Source of the DNA: an uncultured bacterium
Lineage (GTDB): Bacteria > Chloroflexota > UBA5177 > JANWHV01
Length of the DNA: 64,000 bases
NCBI GenBank assembly: GCA_963729625.1
Contig: CAVSOU010000010.1
Span: 256,001 to 320,000, forward strand
Direction of reading: 5' to 3'
Of the stretch, positions 9,346 to 28,373 are shown piece by piece. The notes beneath the pieces are model-generated. The model did not search any database, was not told the DNA's origin, and saw nothing but the letters and a program-made list of their open reading frames with translations. The position numbers were made by a program, and so were the translations under genes. How positions within the stretch are numbered: the stretch's first letter is position 1; each line of letters starts with the position of its first letter.

Positions 9346-10389
9346 ATGGACGGAATACTGGCGGTCGACAAACCCTACGGATGGACCTCCCATGATGTTG
9401 TGGCGAAGCTCAGAAGCCTGGCACATCAAAGGCGAATAGGGCACGCGGGTACGCTCGATCCCATGGCGACGGGCGTGCTGCTTCTTTGCCTGGGTGATGC
9501 CACGCGTGTGAGCGAGATGCTCATGGAGGGCGTGAAATGGTACCTGGCTCGAGTGGCGTTCGGCGTGGCCACCGACACGGACGATGCCCTGGGGACCGTT
9601 CTTTCCATGCAGCCAGCATCCTTCACGGTCGAGCAGCTCATCGCTGCCCTGCGGCAGCAGGTCGGAGCATTGCAACAAACCCCCCCGGCTTTCGCGGCGA
9701 TCAAGAGCGGAGGTGTGCCGAGCTATCGGCGGGCGCGCGCGGGTCAGGCAGTAGAGCTCGCACCGCGATCTGTCACGGTCCACTCCATCACGCTCCTCGA
9801 ATTCGCACCGGCCGGCGGCAAAGTCTCGGCGGGACCGTCAGGCGGGACAAGGCGAGGCGGTGATGCAGATACCACGTCGGCTTCGCGCCCAGGCGGTGAA
9901 AGTCCCGCGCGGGGCGCAATGGGTGCTTTCGCGCGGCCATCAGGGTTGGCCCGGGCAACGATTCTCGTCTCGTGCGGTAAGGGAACATATATCCGGTCGA
10001 TCGCTCGAGACGTCGGCAGCGCGCTCGGCTGCGGAGCGCACCTGTCTGGCCTGCGACGGCTCGCCAGCGGAGGGTTCACCACAAGCGATTGCGCGGAGAT
10101 CGGCGACCTCCAGAGAGTGACGGCCGATCAGGGCCTGACGGCGATTGAACGTCGCCTTGTGGACACTGACGCGGCATTGGCAGATTGGCCCGCGATCGTG
10201 GTGGATGCCAAGCTGGCAGCCGGAATCGCGAACGGCGCGCGGTTCGTGGTCGAGCGCGTGCTTCCCCAACGACGTGCCCGCCTCTACAGCACTCGTGGGG
10301 CTCTTCTCGGCCTCGCGGACGTCGATACACTGCGGGCGGACCATTCCACCGTACAGCCGTACATCGTGTTTGCCGGAGCGGCGTCGTGA
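9346..10389 (+). CDS. truB: tRNA pseudouridine(55) synthase
   Basis: DKPYGWTSHD, GHAGTLDPMATG, CGKGTYIRS. Confidence 0.96.
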   Translation: MDGILAVDKPYGWTSHDVVAKLRSLAHQRRIGHAGTLDPMATGVLLLCLGDATRVSEMLMEGVKWYLARVAFGVATDTDDALGTVLSMQPASFTVEQLIAALRQQVGALQQTPPAFAAIKSGGVPSYRRARAGQAVELAPRSVTVHSITLLEFAPAGGKVSAGPSGGTRRGGDADTTSASRPGGESPARGAMGAFARPSGLARATILVSCGKGTYIRSIARDVGSALGCGAHLSGLRRLASGGFTTSDCAEIGDLQRVTADQGLTAIERRLVDTDAALADWPAIVVDAKLAAGIANGARFVVERVLPQRRARLYSTRGALLGLADVDTLRADHSTVQPYIVFAGAAS

Positions 10390-11288
10390 CGGTGAAGGTA
10401 GCCCGCACGTTTGAGGACGTTCGTCTTGATACGCCAGCCATGCTGTCTATCGGTACCTTCGACGGCGTGCATCGTGGCCACCGATTCCTCTTGGAACAAG
10501 CGCGAAATCGAGCCATTGAGCAGCAGTTCGCGCTTGTGATCGTCACCTTCGACCCGTGCCCTGCCGTGATCCTGCGTCCGGATGTCGGTCGCTATCAGAT
10601 CAGCACGCCGGCGCAGAAGCTACAACTCCTCGACAACCTCGACTCCAGCCTCATCGTGCTGCTGACGTTCACGCCTCAGCTCTCGCGCTTGAGCGCGGAA
10701 GCGTTCATGGATGAGCTGGAGGCACGTCTGCAGCTCAGAGAGCTTTGGGTCGGCCAGGACTTCCGGTTTGGACACGACCGCCGTGGCGATCCGGACATGC
10801 TGGCCGTACGGAGCCGGACGTCCGGATTCTCGCTCCACGTCGTCAGTCGAAGGATGGACGACAAGGAGAGCATATCGAGCTCCCGAATTCGCGGCGTGAT
10901 CGCTCGCGGAGATGTCGAAAATGCGACGCCGCTGCTGGGGTATCCATTTCGACGTGCCTCCGAGGGAGTCGCGGCGGCCACGTGGATCTCCGGCGGGGAC
11001 TGCGTTTCATGTTCGATCGCGCCCCACCTTCTGCTTCCCGCCGACGGCATGTATGCCGTTCAGACTTCCTCGGGAATACAGACCGTTGCTCTCGTAGCCG
11101 GATCGGCGCAGAAAGCGCAGCTCATGGTCAAAGGCACTGAGGCGGGCAGCTCGTTCGAGGTCGAGTTCGTGCACTGGCTAACGACATACGGCGAGTATCT
11201 GCACGACCCAGCACGCTGGGACGTTGCCGCCACTACACTAGTGTCTCGGTGGCAGCGTCCCACCTACGCGCCGATCAGCAGTCACTAG
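10386..11288 (+). CDS. ribF: FAD synthetase (RibF family); FMN adenylyltransferase domain intact, riboflavin kinase domain degenerate
   Basis: IGTFDGVHRGH, GQDFRFG, ISSSRIR present; GFPTAN kinase motif absent. Confidence 0.88.
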   Translation: MTVKVARTFEDVRLDTPAMLSIGTFDGVHRGHRFLLEQARNRAIEQQFALVIVTFDPCPAVILRPDVGRYQISTPAQKLQLLDNLDSSLIVLLTFTPQLSRLSAEAFMDELEARLQLRELWVGQDFRFGHDRRGDPDMLAVRSRTSGFSLHVVSRRMDDKESISSSRIRGVIARGDVENATPLLGYPFRRASEGVAAATWISGGDCVSCSIAPHLLLPADGMYAVQTSSGIQTVALVAGSAQKAQLMVKGTEAGSSFEVEFVHWLTTYGEYLHDPARWDVAATTLVSRWQRPTYAPISSH

Positions 11289-11679: not shown

Positions 11680-12507
11680 GTGATGGTAGCAAGTTCTGGG
11701 TTGCCAGCCAACGGCGAGGATCAGATGATGCCGGGCGCCGCGTCGAGAGCGGAGGCGATGCAGGCGCTGCTCGGCATCCGCTTCAACGATTCGCAGCTGT
11801 TGCTACAGGCCCTGCTGCATCGCTCTGCCGTGCTGGAGCGTCAACGCGTGCACGGTGCGCTGCCGCTGGTGGCCTCAAACGAGCGCCTGGAATTTCTCGG
11901 CGACGCGGTGCTCAGCATGCTTGTGGCGGAATACGCGTATCAGCATTTTACAGACTACGACGAAGGAAGGCTTACCGAAGTCCGCGCAGCTCTCGTGCGC
12001 CGCTCCACGCTGGCGATTCTTGCCGACGGCCTGGGAATCGCGGAGTTGCTTTATGTTGGGCGGTCAGAGCGCAAGAGCGGCAGCCGAGGAAGGATGACGG
12101 TTCTCGCCGAGGCGCTTGAGGCTGTTGTGGCTGCGGTGTACCTCGACCAGGGTTTGGAAGTCACTCGCCACATCGTATTCAACATGCTCGCGGGTAGAAT
12201 TCCGTACCTCTTGCACAGGGCGGACGCCCTGAATCCCAAATCTCGGCTCCAAGAACTGGCACAGTCGACCATGCGTTTGCTCCCCACCTACGAGCTGCTG
12301 GGCCGCACCGGACCGGCGCATGACAGCCGCTTTACCGTGACCGCGTGGGTTGGCGAGCAGTGTGCGACCGGACACGGTACGTCGAAACGGAGCGCAGAAC
12401 AGCATGCCGCGCAACTGTTGCTTGAGGTAATTGAATCGACTGCGGCTGAATTTCACGAGGCCGTGCACGCACAGGCCGCCCAGCCCGATGGGCATCCCGA
12501 TGGCTGA
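11680..12507 (+). CDS. rnc: Ribonuclease III (start may be ~11725)
   Basis: NERLEFLGDAVL signature; dsRBD NPKSRLQE...GPAH...GTSKRSAEQHAA. Confidence 0.96.
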   Translation: MMVASSGLPANGEDQMMPGAASRAEAMQALLGIRFNDSQLLLQALLHRSAVLERQRVHGALPLVASNERLEFLGDAVLSMLVAEYAYQHFTDYDEGRLTEVRAALVRRSTLAILADGLGIAELLYVGRSERKSGSRGRMTVLAEALEAVVAAVYLDQGLEVTRHIVFNMLAGRIPYLLHRADALNPKSRLQELAQSTMRLLPTYELLGRTGPAHDSRFTVTAWVGEQCATGHGTSKRSAEQHAAQLLLEVIESTAAEFHEAVHAQAAQPDGHPDG

Positions 12508-13696
12508 CACGCGTGCACGGCGCGAGCGCACGGGATCAGATGATCGTCCGCGCCAGCTCACTCTATTCGACCTGACTGACGAGGCCGAAGCAGCATCCGC
12601 ACCGCTGGCGAAGCGCACCGTGGCGACCGGCACATCGGCTGCGACGGCGCCCGCTGAGTCGCACGAGCGTGATGCGGCGATGGCGTCTCGTGCCGGCCTG
12701 CCAGGCGACTTCGAAAATGACCGGCTGGCAGGACCTTTCAGCGTGACGGCCTCAGCTCCTCGCCCCGGAGCCGCGACGCTACGACCGGCGATCGACGAGT
12801 ACAAGCAGTACCTAGCGGCAATGAACCGATCCAAGCATACGCGCGACAGCTTCGGGCTCGATCTCAAGCTGTTGCTCGAGCACCTCGGCAACGCGCCGCT
12901 TCATGCCATCGGCGAGCGGGATCTGAGATCGTTCATCAGTTGGGTCAGCGTACAACGGGGCAACAGCGCCACGTCAGTGCGGCGAAAGGTGGCAACGCTC
13001 AAGAATTTCTTCGCCTATCTCCGGCGCGAGCGCGCCATACCAACGGATCCTGCCGCGACTTTGATCTATCCAGAGATCTATCCCGCCTTGCCCGAGTTCT
13101 TGGAGGACGACCAGGTCGCGGATCTGCTCGAGGCGGCCGGTGAGCACCTATTTTGGAAAGCGCTCGTGCTCCTCATGCTTGAAACGGGGTTGAAGCGCGA
13201 TGAGGCGGTCGCGCTCGGTCGCACCGATGTGGTCCTGAGCCGCGACGCGCATGCCTCCTATCTCGTCGTACGAGAGACCGAACAGGCCAAACGACTGCGA
13301 TCGCGCAGATTGGACATCGGAGACGACCTGGCCTCGCTTCTCATCGACTTCGTGAACACGCAGCCCGAGCGTGAGCGGTTCTTTGAAGTCTCCGCCCGCG
13401 GGGTCAACTTCATCGTCGAGACATGCGGCAAACGGGCCCATATTGCCACGAAGGCAAACAAGCTCACGCCACAGATCCTGCGAGCGACTTTTGCCGTGCG
13501 TGCGATGCGCGCAATGGTTGCACTAGAGGACGCGCGGCGGAGTGCTGGCGCTGCCGAGTCCGCAGTAAGTGCGATGGCCGACCAGCACGACCTGCAACTG
13601 TTGCGGTTACTTGGCCTGCACGAAGAGCCCGAGTCGGCGAAGAAGTACCGCAAGCTGGTACGCGGCTGGTCGGAGCACACGAGGCTCGGTGGATGA
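12500..13696 (+). CDS. Divergent tyrosine recombinase-like protein (XerD-like fold, substituted active site)
   Basis: SAM-like core-binding domain (NSATSVRRKVATLKNFFAYL, DPAATL); box I TGLKRDE, box II TPQILRATFA, LLGL...KKY. Confidence 0.8.
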   Translation: MADTRARRERTGSDDRPRQLTLFDLTDEAEAASAPLAKRTVATGTSAATAPAESHERDAAMASRAGLPGDFENDRLAGPFSVTASAPRPGAATLRPAIDEYKQYLAAMNRSKHTRDSFGLDLKLLLEHLGNAPLHAIGERDLRSFISWVSVQRGNSATSVRRKVATLKNFFAYLRRERAIPTDPAATLIYPEIYPALPEFLEDDQVADLLEAAGEHLFWKALVLLMLETGLKRDEAVALGRTDVVLSRDAHASYLVVRETEQAKRLRSRRLDIGDDLASLLIDFVNTQPERERFFEVSARGVNFIVETCGKRAHIATKANKLTPQILRATFAVRAMRAMVALEDARRSAGAAESAVSAMADQHDLQLLRLLGLHEEPESAKKYRKLVRGWSEHTRLGG

Positions 13697-13780: not shown

Positions 13781-14965
13781 TCAGCCAAGCTCGCTGATCG
13801 CATCGAGGACGGCCTCCGCGACATCTCGCTTGCTGGCCATGGGCACCTCTCTCGGCTCCGTTCCAGGCCGGCACAACCAGACGTGGTTGGTATCGGTGTC
13901 GAATCCGGCGCCGGGCTCAGAGACGTCATTGGCCACGAGGAGGTCGGCACCCTTCTGATCCATTTTTTCACCCGCCCGGTGCAATAAGTCTTCAGTTTCC
14001 GCGGCGAATGCGACGATGCGCGTTCCTGGAGGCCGGGATATGGAGCGCAGTATGTCAACCGTAGGCACAAGTGGCAACGACAGCTCTCGAGGAGATCTAC
14101 TAATTTTGCTGGGAGAGGGGTCAGCAGATTTGTAATCGGCGACCGCCGCGGCCATGATCAAAATGGTATTGTCGCTCATACATTTCTGTACCGCAGCAAA
14201 AAGATCATCAGCTGTCCAGATCTGGATTACTGCAGCCCCTGATGGGGGCGCCAACGCGACAGGCCCGGTAATCAGCGTCACGTCCGCGCCGCGGCGCGCG
14301 GCCGCCTCGGCAAGCGCATAGCCCATCTTGCCCGAACTGCGATTCGAGATGTAGCGGACCGGGTCGATAGGTTCCTGCGTTGGCCCGGCCGTGACCACGA
14401 CGTGCCGTCCGGCAAAGTCACGCGGGCGCCATATGCGGGCCAGAATTGCGGACACGATTTCTGCCGTATCCGCGAGACGTCCCACGCCGCGCGTGCCTTC
14501 CGCCAGATAGCCGCTGGCTGGCCCTACAAATCGTGCGCCGCGCGCCTTGAGCGTGGAAACGTGCTGCAGCGTGGCAACGTTTATCCACATCGACGTGTTC
14601 ATCGCCGGCGCGAACAACAACGGTGCGCTGGAAGCCAGTAGCAAGGAGCCAAGCGCATCGTCCGCTATTCCCAGTGCGCATTTGGCGATTACGTTCGCGG
14701 TTGCCGGAACAACGGCCACAAGAGCGGCGGCATGAGCGAGCCGGATGTGGGAGATGTCCATATCTGGCTGCTCGTCCCACAGGCTCGTGAGAACAGGATG
14801 ATGTGTGATACTTTCGAACGAAAGCGGCGCCACGAAGCGCGTCGCATTTTCGGTCATGACCGTGCGCACGGAGACGCCGTTCTGCACGAGTTTGCTGGCT
14901 ACGTCGAGCGCCTTGTACGCCGCTATGCTTCCCGTTACACCGAGAACGACAATGGTCTCAGTCAC
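13781..14965 (-). CDS. coaBC: Bifunctional phosphopantothenoylcysteine decarboxylase/synthetase
   Basis: [48 protein letters not shown]; the longer ORF extension upstream is not credible. Confidence 0.96.
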
Positions 14966-15172
14966 CGCGGCTCCCTCGCAAGAACGTGTTCTGCAACACG
15001 GGCCCCCGAAAAAGGTTGGTTGGCGAACTACTCCGCCAGTGTACCGCTCCAGTGGGCCGTCTCGGTATCCGATTGGCTGGGAACGCGGTCTTCGCCTATA
15101 CTCTATGTGCTGCGGTGCCAACACCGGTTGAATCCGAAGACCGCTCGAGTCCGTAGTTAAGGAGTAGGGACG

Positions 15173-15454
15173 GTGGCTGCCAAGAGTGATGGTGCGATTA
15201 AATACCCTAGCTCGAAGCTGGTCAAGAACCTGAACGTGTTGTCCGCGGGGCTGGGCATTGCCAGCATAGTTCTTGATGCCGTGGTGCCAGTGGTGCAACA
15301 GGTCGGGAAGAAGAAGCAGGCGAAGGAAGGGCTTGAGCGAGCGATCTCTCTCATGATCTTCTTCACTGCGATTCGCACCGTGCCACGCCTCATTCGCGAG
15401 ATTCGCAAGTTGCGCGCGCAGATCGGAACGCCGGTCGCCGGGGAGAACCCCTAA
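15173..15454 (+). CDS. Small hypothetical protein, possibly membrane-associated
   Basis: TAAGGAG RBS before GTG 15173; protein-like composition with two hydrophobic/amphipathic helices; co-oriented with rpmE. Confidence 0.7.
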   Translation: MAAKSDGAIKYPSSKLVKNLNVLSAGLGIASIVLDAVVPVVQQVGKKKQAKEGLERAISLMIFFTAIRTVPRLIREIRKLRAQIGTPVAGENP

Positions 15455-15522
15455 CCGGGATCGGCACATGTGGGACCTGACGTGCACGCATGTCAGAATA
15501 CACAGAGAGTAGGACAGAACAG

Positions 15523-27323: not shown

Positions 27324-28373
27324 GTGAGTCAGGTGACACACGGCATCGGGGCGCGGAAACGCCCGACTTCGCCAACCGTCCCCTTGAAGCGCGCGGCCAG
27401 TGCCGTCACCACCATCGCGAACGCCCCGAAGGAAGCTAGTGATTCTGGAGCGAATCAGCAGTCGGCGTTGTCCCAGGCCGCTCACGATTTCCTTGTCGAG
27501 CAGCGAGCGCGGCACGGAGGCCACTCCCACAGCTTTCGCGCGCGATCCTCGGACTTGCGTCTACTCGTCGTCTGGGCGGCGAGCCGGAGTATCAGCGAAC
27601 CCGAGCAGTTGACGAGGACGGTCCTTCGCGCCTGGCTCTCAGACCTGCATGAGCTCGGCTACGCCCGAAGCTCAATGGCCCGAATGCTGTCGACGGCACG
27701 CTCATTCATCCGTTTCCGCGAGCTTGGCGGAGCCACAATCGACCGAGCGGCTCTCACGTTGAGCGCGGGGAGGCAGTCGAAGTCTCTCCCCGACGTGTTG
27801 ACAGAACCGCAGGCCGCTCGGCTGATGGATACTCGCGCGAACGATCTGGCAGGTGGTCTCAAGCCACTCCCATTGCGAGACCAAGCGGCCCTCGAGCTGC
27901 TGTACGGCACTGGTATGCGCGCCGCCGAGCTCTGCTCGCTCCGAATGGGTGACGTGGCGCTGGAATCCCGCGAGGTCGTCATCATGGGCAAAGGCTCGAA
28001 GGAGAGGCGCGTGCTGTTTGGTGCGCCCGCTGCGACCGCGGTGCGGGCATACCTTGCCAGCTCCAGACCGCTGCTCGTCGCCAGGGCGCCTGCCCACGAC
28101 ATGCTGCTGGTCAACTGGCGAGGCGGGCCGCTCAGCGTGCGGGGTCTCGCTCTCATCGTGGAAAAGCGAGCACAAGAGACGGGCCTGTCAGGCGGCCTGC
28201 ACCCGCACACCCTGCGGCATTCGTTTGCCACGCATCTGCTGAACGGTGGGGCGGATCTCCGCACAGTCCAGCTCTTGCTCGGGCACGAAAGCCTCGCCAC
28301 CACGCAGAAATACCTCCACGTTGCGGATCCTCGTCTGCACGACCTGTACCATCGTTGCCACCCACGTGCATAA
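27324..28373 (+). CDS. xerC: Tyrosine recombinase XerC/CodV-like
   Basis: Complete catalytic set: TGMRAAEL, GKGSKER, HTLRH, LLGH, TTQKY; xerC-hslV-hslU synteny. Confidence 0.88.
   Translation: MSQVTHGIGARKRPTSPTVPLKRAASAVTTIANAPKEASDSGANQQSALSQAAHDFLVEQRARHGGHSHSFRARSSDLRLLVVWAASRSISEPEQLTRTVLRAWLSDLHELGYARSSMARMLSTARSFIRFRELGGATIDRAALTLSAGRQSKSLPDVLTEPQAARLMDTRANDLAGGLKPLPLRDQAALELLYGTGMRAAELCSLRMGDVALESREVVIMGKGSKERRVLFGAPAATAVRAYLASSRPLLVARAPAHDMLLVNWRGGPLSVRGLALIVEKRAQETGLSGGLHPHTLRHSFATHLLNGGADLRTVQLLLGHESLATTQKYLHVADPRLHDLYHRCHPRA

Follow-up and report, generated by a model that had tools for sequence, protein, structure and literature searches.

The tyrosine recombinases XerC/XerD and XerA are the closest described systems to a gene found in a 64,000-nucleotide stretch of DNA from an uncultured Chloroflexota bacterium (contig CAVSOU010000010.1 of assembly GCA_963729625.1, positions 256,001 to 320,000 of the forward strand; this whole stretch is hereafter called the window). 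The gene encodes a protein of 398 residues, P0001, which has the SAM-like core-binding domain and the catalytic fold of these recombinases and finds among them its best matches in both sequence and fold (PDB entries 1a0p and 5hxy). As with them, the gene is chromosomal, present in single copy and set in a housekeeping context. On the other hand, P0001 scores far under the equivalog cut-offs for these recombinases, carries Lys, Gln and Leu at the positions of Arg I, His I and His II, has an insertion of about 22 residues ahead of an LGL turn, and belongs to a separate clade. It also starts with a disordered arm of about 90 residues that bears a clamp-binding-type motif, whereas the canonical Xers of the same genomes are without it.

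A second system to which it can be compared is the streptococcal 'XerD-like' protein, an Xer paralogue of housekeeping type whose active site is degenerate and which is kept beside a working dimer-resolution system. To our knowledge, no clamp motif has been reported in that protein. At E<=1, P0001 matched 8 NCBIfam families, none of which is a model for it, the content of the library for this model being unchecked.

The same substitution, at the same position as in P0001, is found in Cre R173K, Flp R191K and Tn1549 Int R225K, mutants that are described as folding and binding DNA while being crippled in vitro (PMC2943603). These are, however, laboratory point mutants, whereas the Lys of the P0001 family has been fixed by natural selection across the phylum and is accompanied by the Gln and Leu changes. 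With regard to the arm, the sequence QLSLPL in a flexible N-terminal segment of Escherichia coli Hda is described as docking Hda on the DNA-loaded sliding clamp, DnaN (PMC5397184), albeit Hda is an AAA+ protein, non-homologous to the family considered here, whose target is DnaA and not DNA. ImuB, an inactive Y-family polymerase, is likewise described as keeping its clamp motif and working as an adaptor (PMC11791113), but it has another fold and acts in another pathway, and its inactivity is established whereas that of the P0001 family is only plausible. Insertion sequence (IS) transposases, the Tn3 transposase TnpA and a group II intron protein are reported to use the clamp for targeting (PMC4549789, PMC11417375, PMC6698660); these are borne by mobile elements and have other catalytic folds, in contrast to a vertically inherited host gene. 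Searches of an open-access literature library brought up no paper dealing with the P0001 family or with a clamp motif in a protein of the tyrosine recombinase fold.

P0001 belongs to an old Chloroflexota paralogue family of the Xer-type recombinase fold, here called Lys-type in reference to its Arg I position, which is always Lys. The Lys-type protein is probably a replication-linked DNA-binding protein, and neither a normal recombinase nor a decayed integrase. The more specific reading that we prefer, and to which we give about an even chance, is that P0001 is a clamp-tethered DNA-binding Xer paralogue in which catalysis is impaired or dispensable.

Fold, active-site columns and family

The preliminary description of this DNA, made from its letters, had seen in the gene a recombinase fold with a rewired active site (Lys, QxxR and Leu in place of the canonical residues, with the Tyr retained) and an extra helix ahead of the last box. 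The fold was borne out by Pfam, by an AlphaFold2 (AF2) model and by Foldseek, which place P0001 in the tyrosine recombinase superfamily. PF02899 matched with 46.8 bits (cut-off 22.3) and PF00589 with 26.2 bits, just under its cut-off of 27.1 and to be compared with 155.9 bits for a canonical Xer encoded in the window. The NCBIfam equivalog cut-offs were missed for XerA (NF040815, 83.6 against 220 bits), XerC (TIGR02224, 76.4 against 335.15 bits) and XerD (TIGR02225, 71.7 against 329.6 bits). The AF2 model, built from 45 homologues, has a mean predicted local distance difference test score (pLDDT) of 82.7, with the core (residues 94-395) mostly above 90 and with values below 50 at residues 1-7, 11-14, 27-73 and 75-79 (residues 1-79 are mostly below 50). 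Foldseek matched XerA (5hxy, 1.2e-11), lambda Int (5.4e-10) and XerH (1.2e-8), and also Tn1549 Int, XerD and Cre.

A further PDB chain, 9i5v_14, which has 401 residues and is deposited as 'Ribosome-associated translation inhibitor RaiA', matched P0001 over an Xer-like stretch (residues 51-262, with a canonical HVLRH). Either this chain is an Xer-RaiA fusion, or the label applies to just part of it.

In the HMMER alignment to XerD (1a0p), TGLKRDE of P0001 falls on TGLRVSE and PQILRA on PHVLRH, which makes K232 the equivalent of Arg I, Q325 that of His I and R328 that of Arg II, and in the alignment to the canonical Xer of the window, L373 is the counterpart of the His of LLGH (His II/III) and Y383 that of the nucleophilic Tyr. 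The active-site columns of P0001 thus read K232 / K264 / Q325xxR328 / L373 / Y383, as had been proposed, and depart at three of six positions from the enzyme set Arg I-Lys-His-Arg II-His/Trp-Tyr. The earlier coordinates for the Lys (13193), the Gln (13472), the Tyr (13646) and the heptapeptide RQLTLFD of the arm (residues 18-24, 12551-12571) were all correct. The extra helix is real because the spacing from Arg II to His II is 45 residues in P0001 and 23 in the canonical Xer, and because the AF2 model has long helices at residues 324-348 and 353-371. The gene and the parts of its core are listed here, with column counts taken over P0001 plus 90 homologues (the window's own longer gene call was left out).

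12500..13696, + strand: Lys-type Xer-like paralogue P0001, 398 amino acids (open reading frame, Pfam, homologues, AF2, Foldseek)
12791..13030, + strand: SAM-like N-terminal core-binding domain, residues 98-177 (PF02899, 3.7e-12; AF2 helices at 94-176, pLDDT >90)
13097..13693, + strand: catalytic-fold C-terminal domain, residues 200-398 (PF00589 over 200-342; Foldseek to XerA, lambda Int, XerH and Cre)
13193..13195, + strand: K232, Arg I column, in TGLKRDE (aligned to TGLRVSE of XerD and GTGMRAAE of the window's canonical Xer)
13289..13291, + strand: K264, beta-hairpin Lys column, in AKRLRSRR (Lys in 81/90 homologues, Arg in 6/90)
13472..13483, + strand: Q325-I-L-R328 in place of HxxR (aligned to PHVLRH of XerD; Gln in 87/90, Arg in 90/90)
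13484..13615, + strand: Arg II-to-LGL stretch with the clade-specific insertion of about 22 residues (helices 324-348 and 353-371; spacing 45 against 23)
13616..13618, + strand: L373, His II/III column, LLGL against LLGH (Leu in 85/86 homologues)
13646..13648, + strand: Y383, nucleophile Tyr column (Tyr in 87/88 homologues)

A search of 5.8 billion proteins gave 91 relatives of P0001 among 7999 scored candidates. The named ones stem from metagenomes of Chloroflexota and are annotated as XerC, XerD, integrase or 'site-specific integrase', labels that probably overstate the activity of Lys-type genes. All 10 near relatives belong to metagenome-assembled genomes named 'Chloroflexota bacterium', and the matches in the ESM Atlas were all generic 'integrase' clusters of Chloroflexota and Thermomicrobiota. 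The Arg I column is Lys and the Glu column (E235) is Glu in 91 of 91 homologues, and the conservation of Tyr, Lys, Arg II and Glu spans homologues down to about 33% identity, the hairpin Lys being variable in a distant subfamily. A check proposed with the preliminary description, whether orthologues share its Lys, Gln, Leu and Tyr, was thus answered in its favour at all four columns (91/91, 87/90, 85/86 and 87/88). Since the variant residues are conserved across 91 homologues, isolated decay is not a suitable explanation, and as judged from these alignments the variant active site is a conserved family trait that is not due to chance either.

When 301 genomes of the phylum were searched with a profile and the hits counted by hand, 78 genomes had exactly one match each of 143 bits or more, a number that is a lower bound as the search had a stricter first look; weaker matches (126 bits or less) were canonical Xers. 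The phylum-wide residue check was made on the 30 best loci (among them locus L009 of genome G226, on which no claim rests). Lys at Arg I and Arg at Arg II were found in 30/30, and Leu, Ile or Val at the His II column in 29/29. The Tyr column was less uniform, with Tyr in 19 of 29 loci, Leu in 7, and Ile, Cys and Phe in one each. In a quick maximum-likelihood tree, calculated without the truncated L004 and L009 and without L156 (wrong frame), a single branch with an SH-aLRT support of 99 divides 28 Lys-type from 21 canonical rows, and the Tyr losses fall in at least 2 separate clades of the Lys-type family.

The Lys-type clade has two subfamilies, a 'long' one that includes P0001 and carries an insertion of 18-22 residues, and a 'short' one with canonical spacing and just about 7 residues past the Tyr column. 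At least 588 relatives of the short subfamily are present in the species-genome collection, and the best 80 of them are all from Ktedonobacteria; its cultured bearers include Ktedonobacter racemifer, Thermogemmatispora, Thermosporothrix and Ktedonosporobacter, and experiments are feasible because members occur in these cultured Ktedonobacteria. Outside the source genus, families f2 and f3 of the window's own class gave weak matches at the level of canonical Xers (best 6.3e-27) or none. Since the Lys-type gene is present in several other classes, its distribution is therefore patchy, or copies were missed by the stricter first look.

The N-terminal arm and the sliding clamp

The core is preceded by the following two features.

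12500..12778, + strand: disordered N-terminal arm, residues 1-93 (AF2 pLDDT; conserved only at the motif)
12554..12568, + strand: QLTLF, beta-clamp-binding-type pentapeptide, residues 19-23 (column conservation, codon variation, co-fold)

The clamp-binding consensus is given as QL[S/D]LF or QxxLF, the critical positions being 1, 4 and 5 (PMC12309361), and a hexapeptide type QLxLxL is described as well, of which the N-terminal QLSLPL of Hda is an example (PMC5397184). QLTLF of P0001 is a beta-clamp-binding motif of this kind, located in an arm with pLDDT mostly below 50. In the 45-sequence alignment the arm is conserved only at Q19, L22 and F23, each at 90% or more, and among the homologue rows with a residue at these columns, Gln is found in 73/73, L22 in 76/77 and Phe in 73/76. 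Of the 81 homologues whose N-terminal region has 15 or more amino acids, 69 carry the strict pattern Q[LMIV]x[LMIV]F; the other 12 include 3 with QLxLPL, one with QLSFF and 3 gene calls that start at MTLFEE inside the motif. Among the phylum loci with a readable N-terminus, Q..LF or QLxLP[LF] was present in 16 of 27, situated 27-75 residues ahead of the core, in the variants QLSLF, QLPLF, QPSLF, QANLF, QPDLF, QGGLF and QLALPF/L, with subclade f50 bearing exactly the hexapeptide type QLxLPL/F. No clamp-type motif was found in the 21 canonical Xers of the same genomes.

QLTLF lies 18 residues after the ATG at 12500, inside the translated reading frame, and the codons for its Gln, Leu, Leu and Phe vary synonymously between genomes, from which it follows that the segment is translated and selected as protein. 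The motif noted in the preliminary description has thus proved to be both conserved and located downstream of the true start.

A structural model with DnaN had also been suggested. No dnaN gene was found in the source assembly (87% complete, 21 contigs) with TIGR00663 or PF02768, and a DnaN from the same genus, in three genomes of which dnaN adjoins recF, was therefore used. Two copies of DnaN from a same-genus genome that also bears an orthologue of P0001 were co-folded with residues 1-45. Three runs gave values of 0.66, 0.64 and 0.66 for the interface score ipSAE, while the best of three controls reached 0.00; the same mark is reached by 116 of 157 solved complexes and by 2 of 215 mismatched pairs. 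The runs share at least 67% of their contacts, and the pLDDT of the partner is 44-47. Residues 15-25 face DnaN residues 153, 156, 173, 175-178, 246, 251, 280-284, 329, 353, 355, 369 and 371-376, which puts the motif in the canonical DnaN cleft in the model, with the C-terminal tail of DnaN forming part of the interface. The co-fold supports a likeness to known clamp-peptide complexes and describes predicted binding only.

Another explanation of the arm would be that P0001 is a non-catalytic DNA binder in which Q..LF binds a partner other than DnaN, or serves as a structural or degron element, with no tether to the replisome. The gene is kept without the motif in 11 of the 27 loci, namely in two subclades, f47 (3 loci) and f8 plus f32 (7 loci), and in one further Ktedonobacterial locus. 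In addition, QPSLF, QANLF and QGGLF deviate from QL[S/D]LF at position 2, and the co-fold may owe its success to remembered clamp-peptide complexes, of which many are solved. Against this, the positions conserved in the family are 1, 4 and 5, exactly those given as critical (PMC12309361), the motif sits in a disordered arm, as it does in Hda (PMC5397184), and the co-fold used the canonical cleft while all three controls gave 0.00. We regard a non-catalytic binder of this kind, with a partner other than DnaN, as unlikely.

Loci that have lost the clamp motif tend to have lost the Tyr as well. Families f8 and f32 are without both, and f47 is without the motif and has Cys or Phe at the Tyr column in 2 of 3 loci; exceptions are L012, with the motif present and Ile at the Tyr column, and L008, with the Tyr kept and the motif absent. 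The sample (L008, L010-L013, L016, L017, L020, L021, L025 and L028) is small, and kinship between the genomes was uncontrolled.

Proposed mechanism and catalytic capacity

According to the preferred reading, that of a clamp-tethered DNA-binding protein, the arm would dock in the hydrophobic cleft of DNA-loaded DnaN in the way of QLSLPL of Hda, and docking would concentrate the protein on newly replicated DNA. The C-clamp of the recombinase fold would bind DNA via its phosphate-binding residues K232, K264 and R328 and the basic hairpin AKRLRSRR, strand cleavage would be strongly impaired or dispensable, and the main role of the protein, coupled to replication, would be that of a DNA-binding or architectural factor or of a regulator, comparable to ImuB. 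A domesticated, replisome-tethered DNA binder was also what the preliminary description had in mind. Its domestication is in agreement with the conserved family, the conserved motif and the housekeeping context, whereas its tether is a prediction from the motif and the co-fold.

The consequences of changes in the active site have been studied in Cre, Flp and Tn1549 Int. In all systems examined, the exchange of Arg I for Lys is reported to lower activity in vitro greatly. Cre R173K has a synapsis defect and shows no activity in vitro, yet it recombines in vivo, and Flp R191K accumulates covalent intermediates (PMC2943603). In the same account Cre H289Q is near wild type, W315L has weak but detectable activity, and Tyr and Lys are essential for catalysis (PMC2943603). 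Lys at Arg I is given there for about 1.1% of tyrosine recombinases, and whether these are inactive or have an alternative site geometry is left open by its authors (PMC2943603). As its title tells, PDB entry 6en2 contains Tn1549 Int R225K crystallised with DNA.

Catalytic death of the Lys-type family is plausible in this light, and because of the triple change together with the repeated loss of the Tyr in sister clades, the core role of the family is taken not to be catalysis. Several observations weigh against this reading, in addition to the loci without the motif and the possible memory effect in the co-fold. The subfamily of P0001 keeps the Tyr (87/88), the hairpin Lys (81/90), Arg II and Glu, which is hard to explain without a chemical role, and single Cre mutants are tolerated to different degrees, H289Q being near wild type, W315L weakly active and R173K able to recombine in vivo (PMC2943603). 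QxxR is also present in canonical, presumably active Xers of one Chloroflexota family, f50, the DnaN used for the co-fold came from another genome of the genus and its partner had a pLDDT of only 44-47, and the cellular role is a guess, as no DNA target, partner or neighbour shared across lineages was found.

A competing explanation is that P0001 still works as a tyrosine recombinase or a nicking enzyme, though an atypical one with the site K-K-Q-R-L-Y, and that the clamp licenses its chemistry or targets it to replicating DNA, for instance in site-specific recombination or resolution coupled to replication. This reading stays alive because the P0001 subfamily, down to about 33% identity, has kept Tyr, Lys, Arg II (90/90) and Glu (91/91) almost without exception. 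It is in line with the mutants just cited, including the covalent intermediates of Flp R191K, and with the remark of the same authors that alternative active sites may exist in recombinases without Arg I (PMC2943603). The canonical-clade Xers of family f50 (L150, L151 and L152) likewise have QxxR for HxxR while keeping Arg at Arg I, His at His II and the Tyr, and Gln at His I alone is therefore no sign of inactivity. On the other hand, P0001 combines three substitutions, one of which, Arg I-to-Lys, is described as abolishing in vitro activity in the tested systems (PMC2943603). Sister clades carry Leu, Ile, Cys or Phe at the Tyr column in 10 of 29 loci and keep the Lys, the Arg and the G-L, a pattern that suggests a core function without the nucleophile, and a repeat search near the gene revealed no recombination site, inverted repeats or invertible segment. 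A working enzyme of this kind has in our estimate about half the probability of the clamp-tethered DNA binder.

The same data bear on the term pseudo-recombinase, used for P0001 in the preliminary description. With the Tyr, the hairpin Lys, Arg II and Glu conserved and with single Cre mutants tolerated (PMC2943603), this term is not sustained for the P0001 subfamily. A more elaborate idea, to which we attach a rather low probability, is that the Tyr-retaining subfamilies are recruited by the clamp and that Tyr383 carries out slow or clamp-licensed covalent chemistry (site-specific nicking, recombination or a 'bookmark') on newly replicated DNA. P0001 would in that case be the first tyrosine-recombinase-fold protein to ride the replisome, in a replication-coupled step unknown in any bacterium.

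Genomic context and significance

Two further genes of the window serve for comparison.

11680..12507, + strand: rnc, RNase III (Pfam Ribonucleas_3_3 4.7e-31, Ribonuclease_3 1.5e-21, dsrm 4.2e-15)
27324..28373, + strand: canonical Xer-type recombinase, outside the feature under study (PF00589 155.9 bits; TIGR02225 252 bits)

The start of the gene overlaps the end of rnc, as had been noted. The sequence ATGGCTGA holds both the ATG at 12500 and the stop codon TGA of rnc at 12505-12507, which gives an overlap of 8 nt. The designation 'rnc-coupled' in the preliminary description holds within the genus and fails elsewhere, as rnc adjoins the gene in just 4 of 30 loci, which all belong to the source genus, and Pfam scans detected Ribonuclease_3 in 0 of 19 neighbour contexts from other genera. 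The overlap amounts to translational coupling in this genus only, with no functional meaning for the family, and the linkage to rnc as a functional clue was rejected on these grounds.

In the window the gene is accompanied by DHH/DHHA1, TruB, RibF, a Zn-ribbon protein and rnc, and by CoaBC (convergent), L31, DUF1385 and RF1. The open reading frames of ribF (10185-11288) and coaBC (13781-15487) are too long at their 5' ends, the Pfam matches starting at residues 83 and 180, and an apparent overlap of 200 nt between truB and ribF is probably an artefact of the first-start rule.

Elsewhere the contexts are others. Family f47 has rluB-cmk-DUF512 upstream and scpA convergent in 3 of 3 genomes (L038 4173-6035, L039 5061-6659, L040 4248-5903), the 3' ends of the Lys-type gene and scpA overlapping by about 60-80 nt and the DUF512 neighbour being a radical SAM/PDZ protein. 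The streptococcal XerD-like gene is presumably located next to scpA and scpB. A convergent tilS was found in f8 and f32, comEA-comEC and PMT_2 in Ktedonobacteria, and a GH113-like gene and Tex in f26 and f44. Synteny of the Lys-type gene is kept within lineages, and among the 20 genomes scanned no neighbour was conserved across lineages, the contexts being lineage-specific.

The possibility that the gene is a decaying phage or mobile integrase, a remnant of a duplicated Xer, or encodes a protein functionally tied to RNase III was also considered. It could draw on the PF00589 score just under the cut-off (26.2 against 27.1 bits), on matches to PHROG 'integrase' families and on the overlap with rnc. 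However, the frame is intact, 91 homologues have the same variant residues, one strong match per genome is seen in 78 of 301 phylum genomes, synteny is kept within lineages, and rnc adjacency is limited to one genus (4/30 loci). The only tRNA gene in the first 30 kb lies at 843-929, which puts the nearest tRNA 11.5 kb away from the Lys-type gene, and a search for att-like repeats around the gene gave low-identity chance matches only. A phage or mobile integrase is not indicated by this context, with no tRNA within 11 kb, no att repeats and no cargo, and with housekeeping neighbours here and in 20 other genomes. Pfam scans of the neighbours in these 20 genomes found no mobile-element gene beside the family gene, but in one of them an IS605 OrfB lies about 2.3 kb away, and PADLOC models gave 0 families at E<=0.01 and thus no sign of anti-phage defence. 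The absence of cargo and att context, remarked upon from the start, was in this way corroborated. The reading as decay or integrase remnant is contradicted by the conservation data, and we consider it, together with the tie to RNase III, highly improbable. The Lys-type gene is a chromosomal, single-copy, vertically inherited host gene in lineage-specific housekeeping contexts.

The source genome has two canonical Xer-like genes, one in the window at 27324-28373, where the preliminary description had likewise placed a fully canonical Xer and where the motif set was found complete (R / GKGSK / HTLRH / LLGH / KYLH), and one on contig 8 (R, GKGG, HSFRH, ILGH, IYTH). These two genes could serve dimer resolution. 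The idea that the Lys-type protein stands in for an absent second Xer is weakened by their presence, and the suggestion that it is an Xer partner gained nothing from the data for the same reason. Twenty second matches were fetched from other genomes with a Lys-type gene, and 17 of them read R..[H/Q]xxR..H..Y; the remaining ones were one with Asn at the His II column, one with Gln at Arg I and one wrong reading frame. In the canonical clade, the Xer paralogue at locus L160 (G066:C46) retains LLGH and the Tyr but reads Gln at Arg I and QTLRQ for HxxRH, and from its sequence it looks like a second, independent degenerate Xer.

The Lys-type family, which spans the phylum and is always found beside canonical Xers, is a clean natural case for the question left open in the Cre study, as it is put there, of whether Lys at Arg I means a dead site or an alternative one (PMC2943603). 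If the conserved clamp motif functions as proposed, these proteins would form a new class of clients of the bacterial sliding clamp, and the recombinase fold would be tied to replication along another path than dimer resolution under the control of FtsK.

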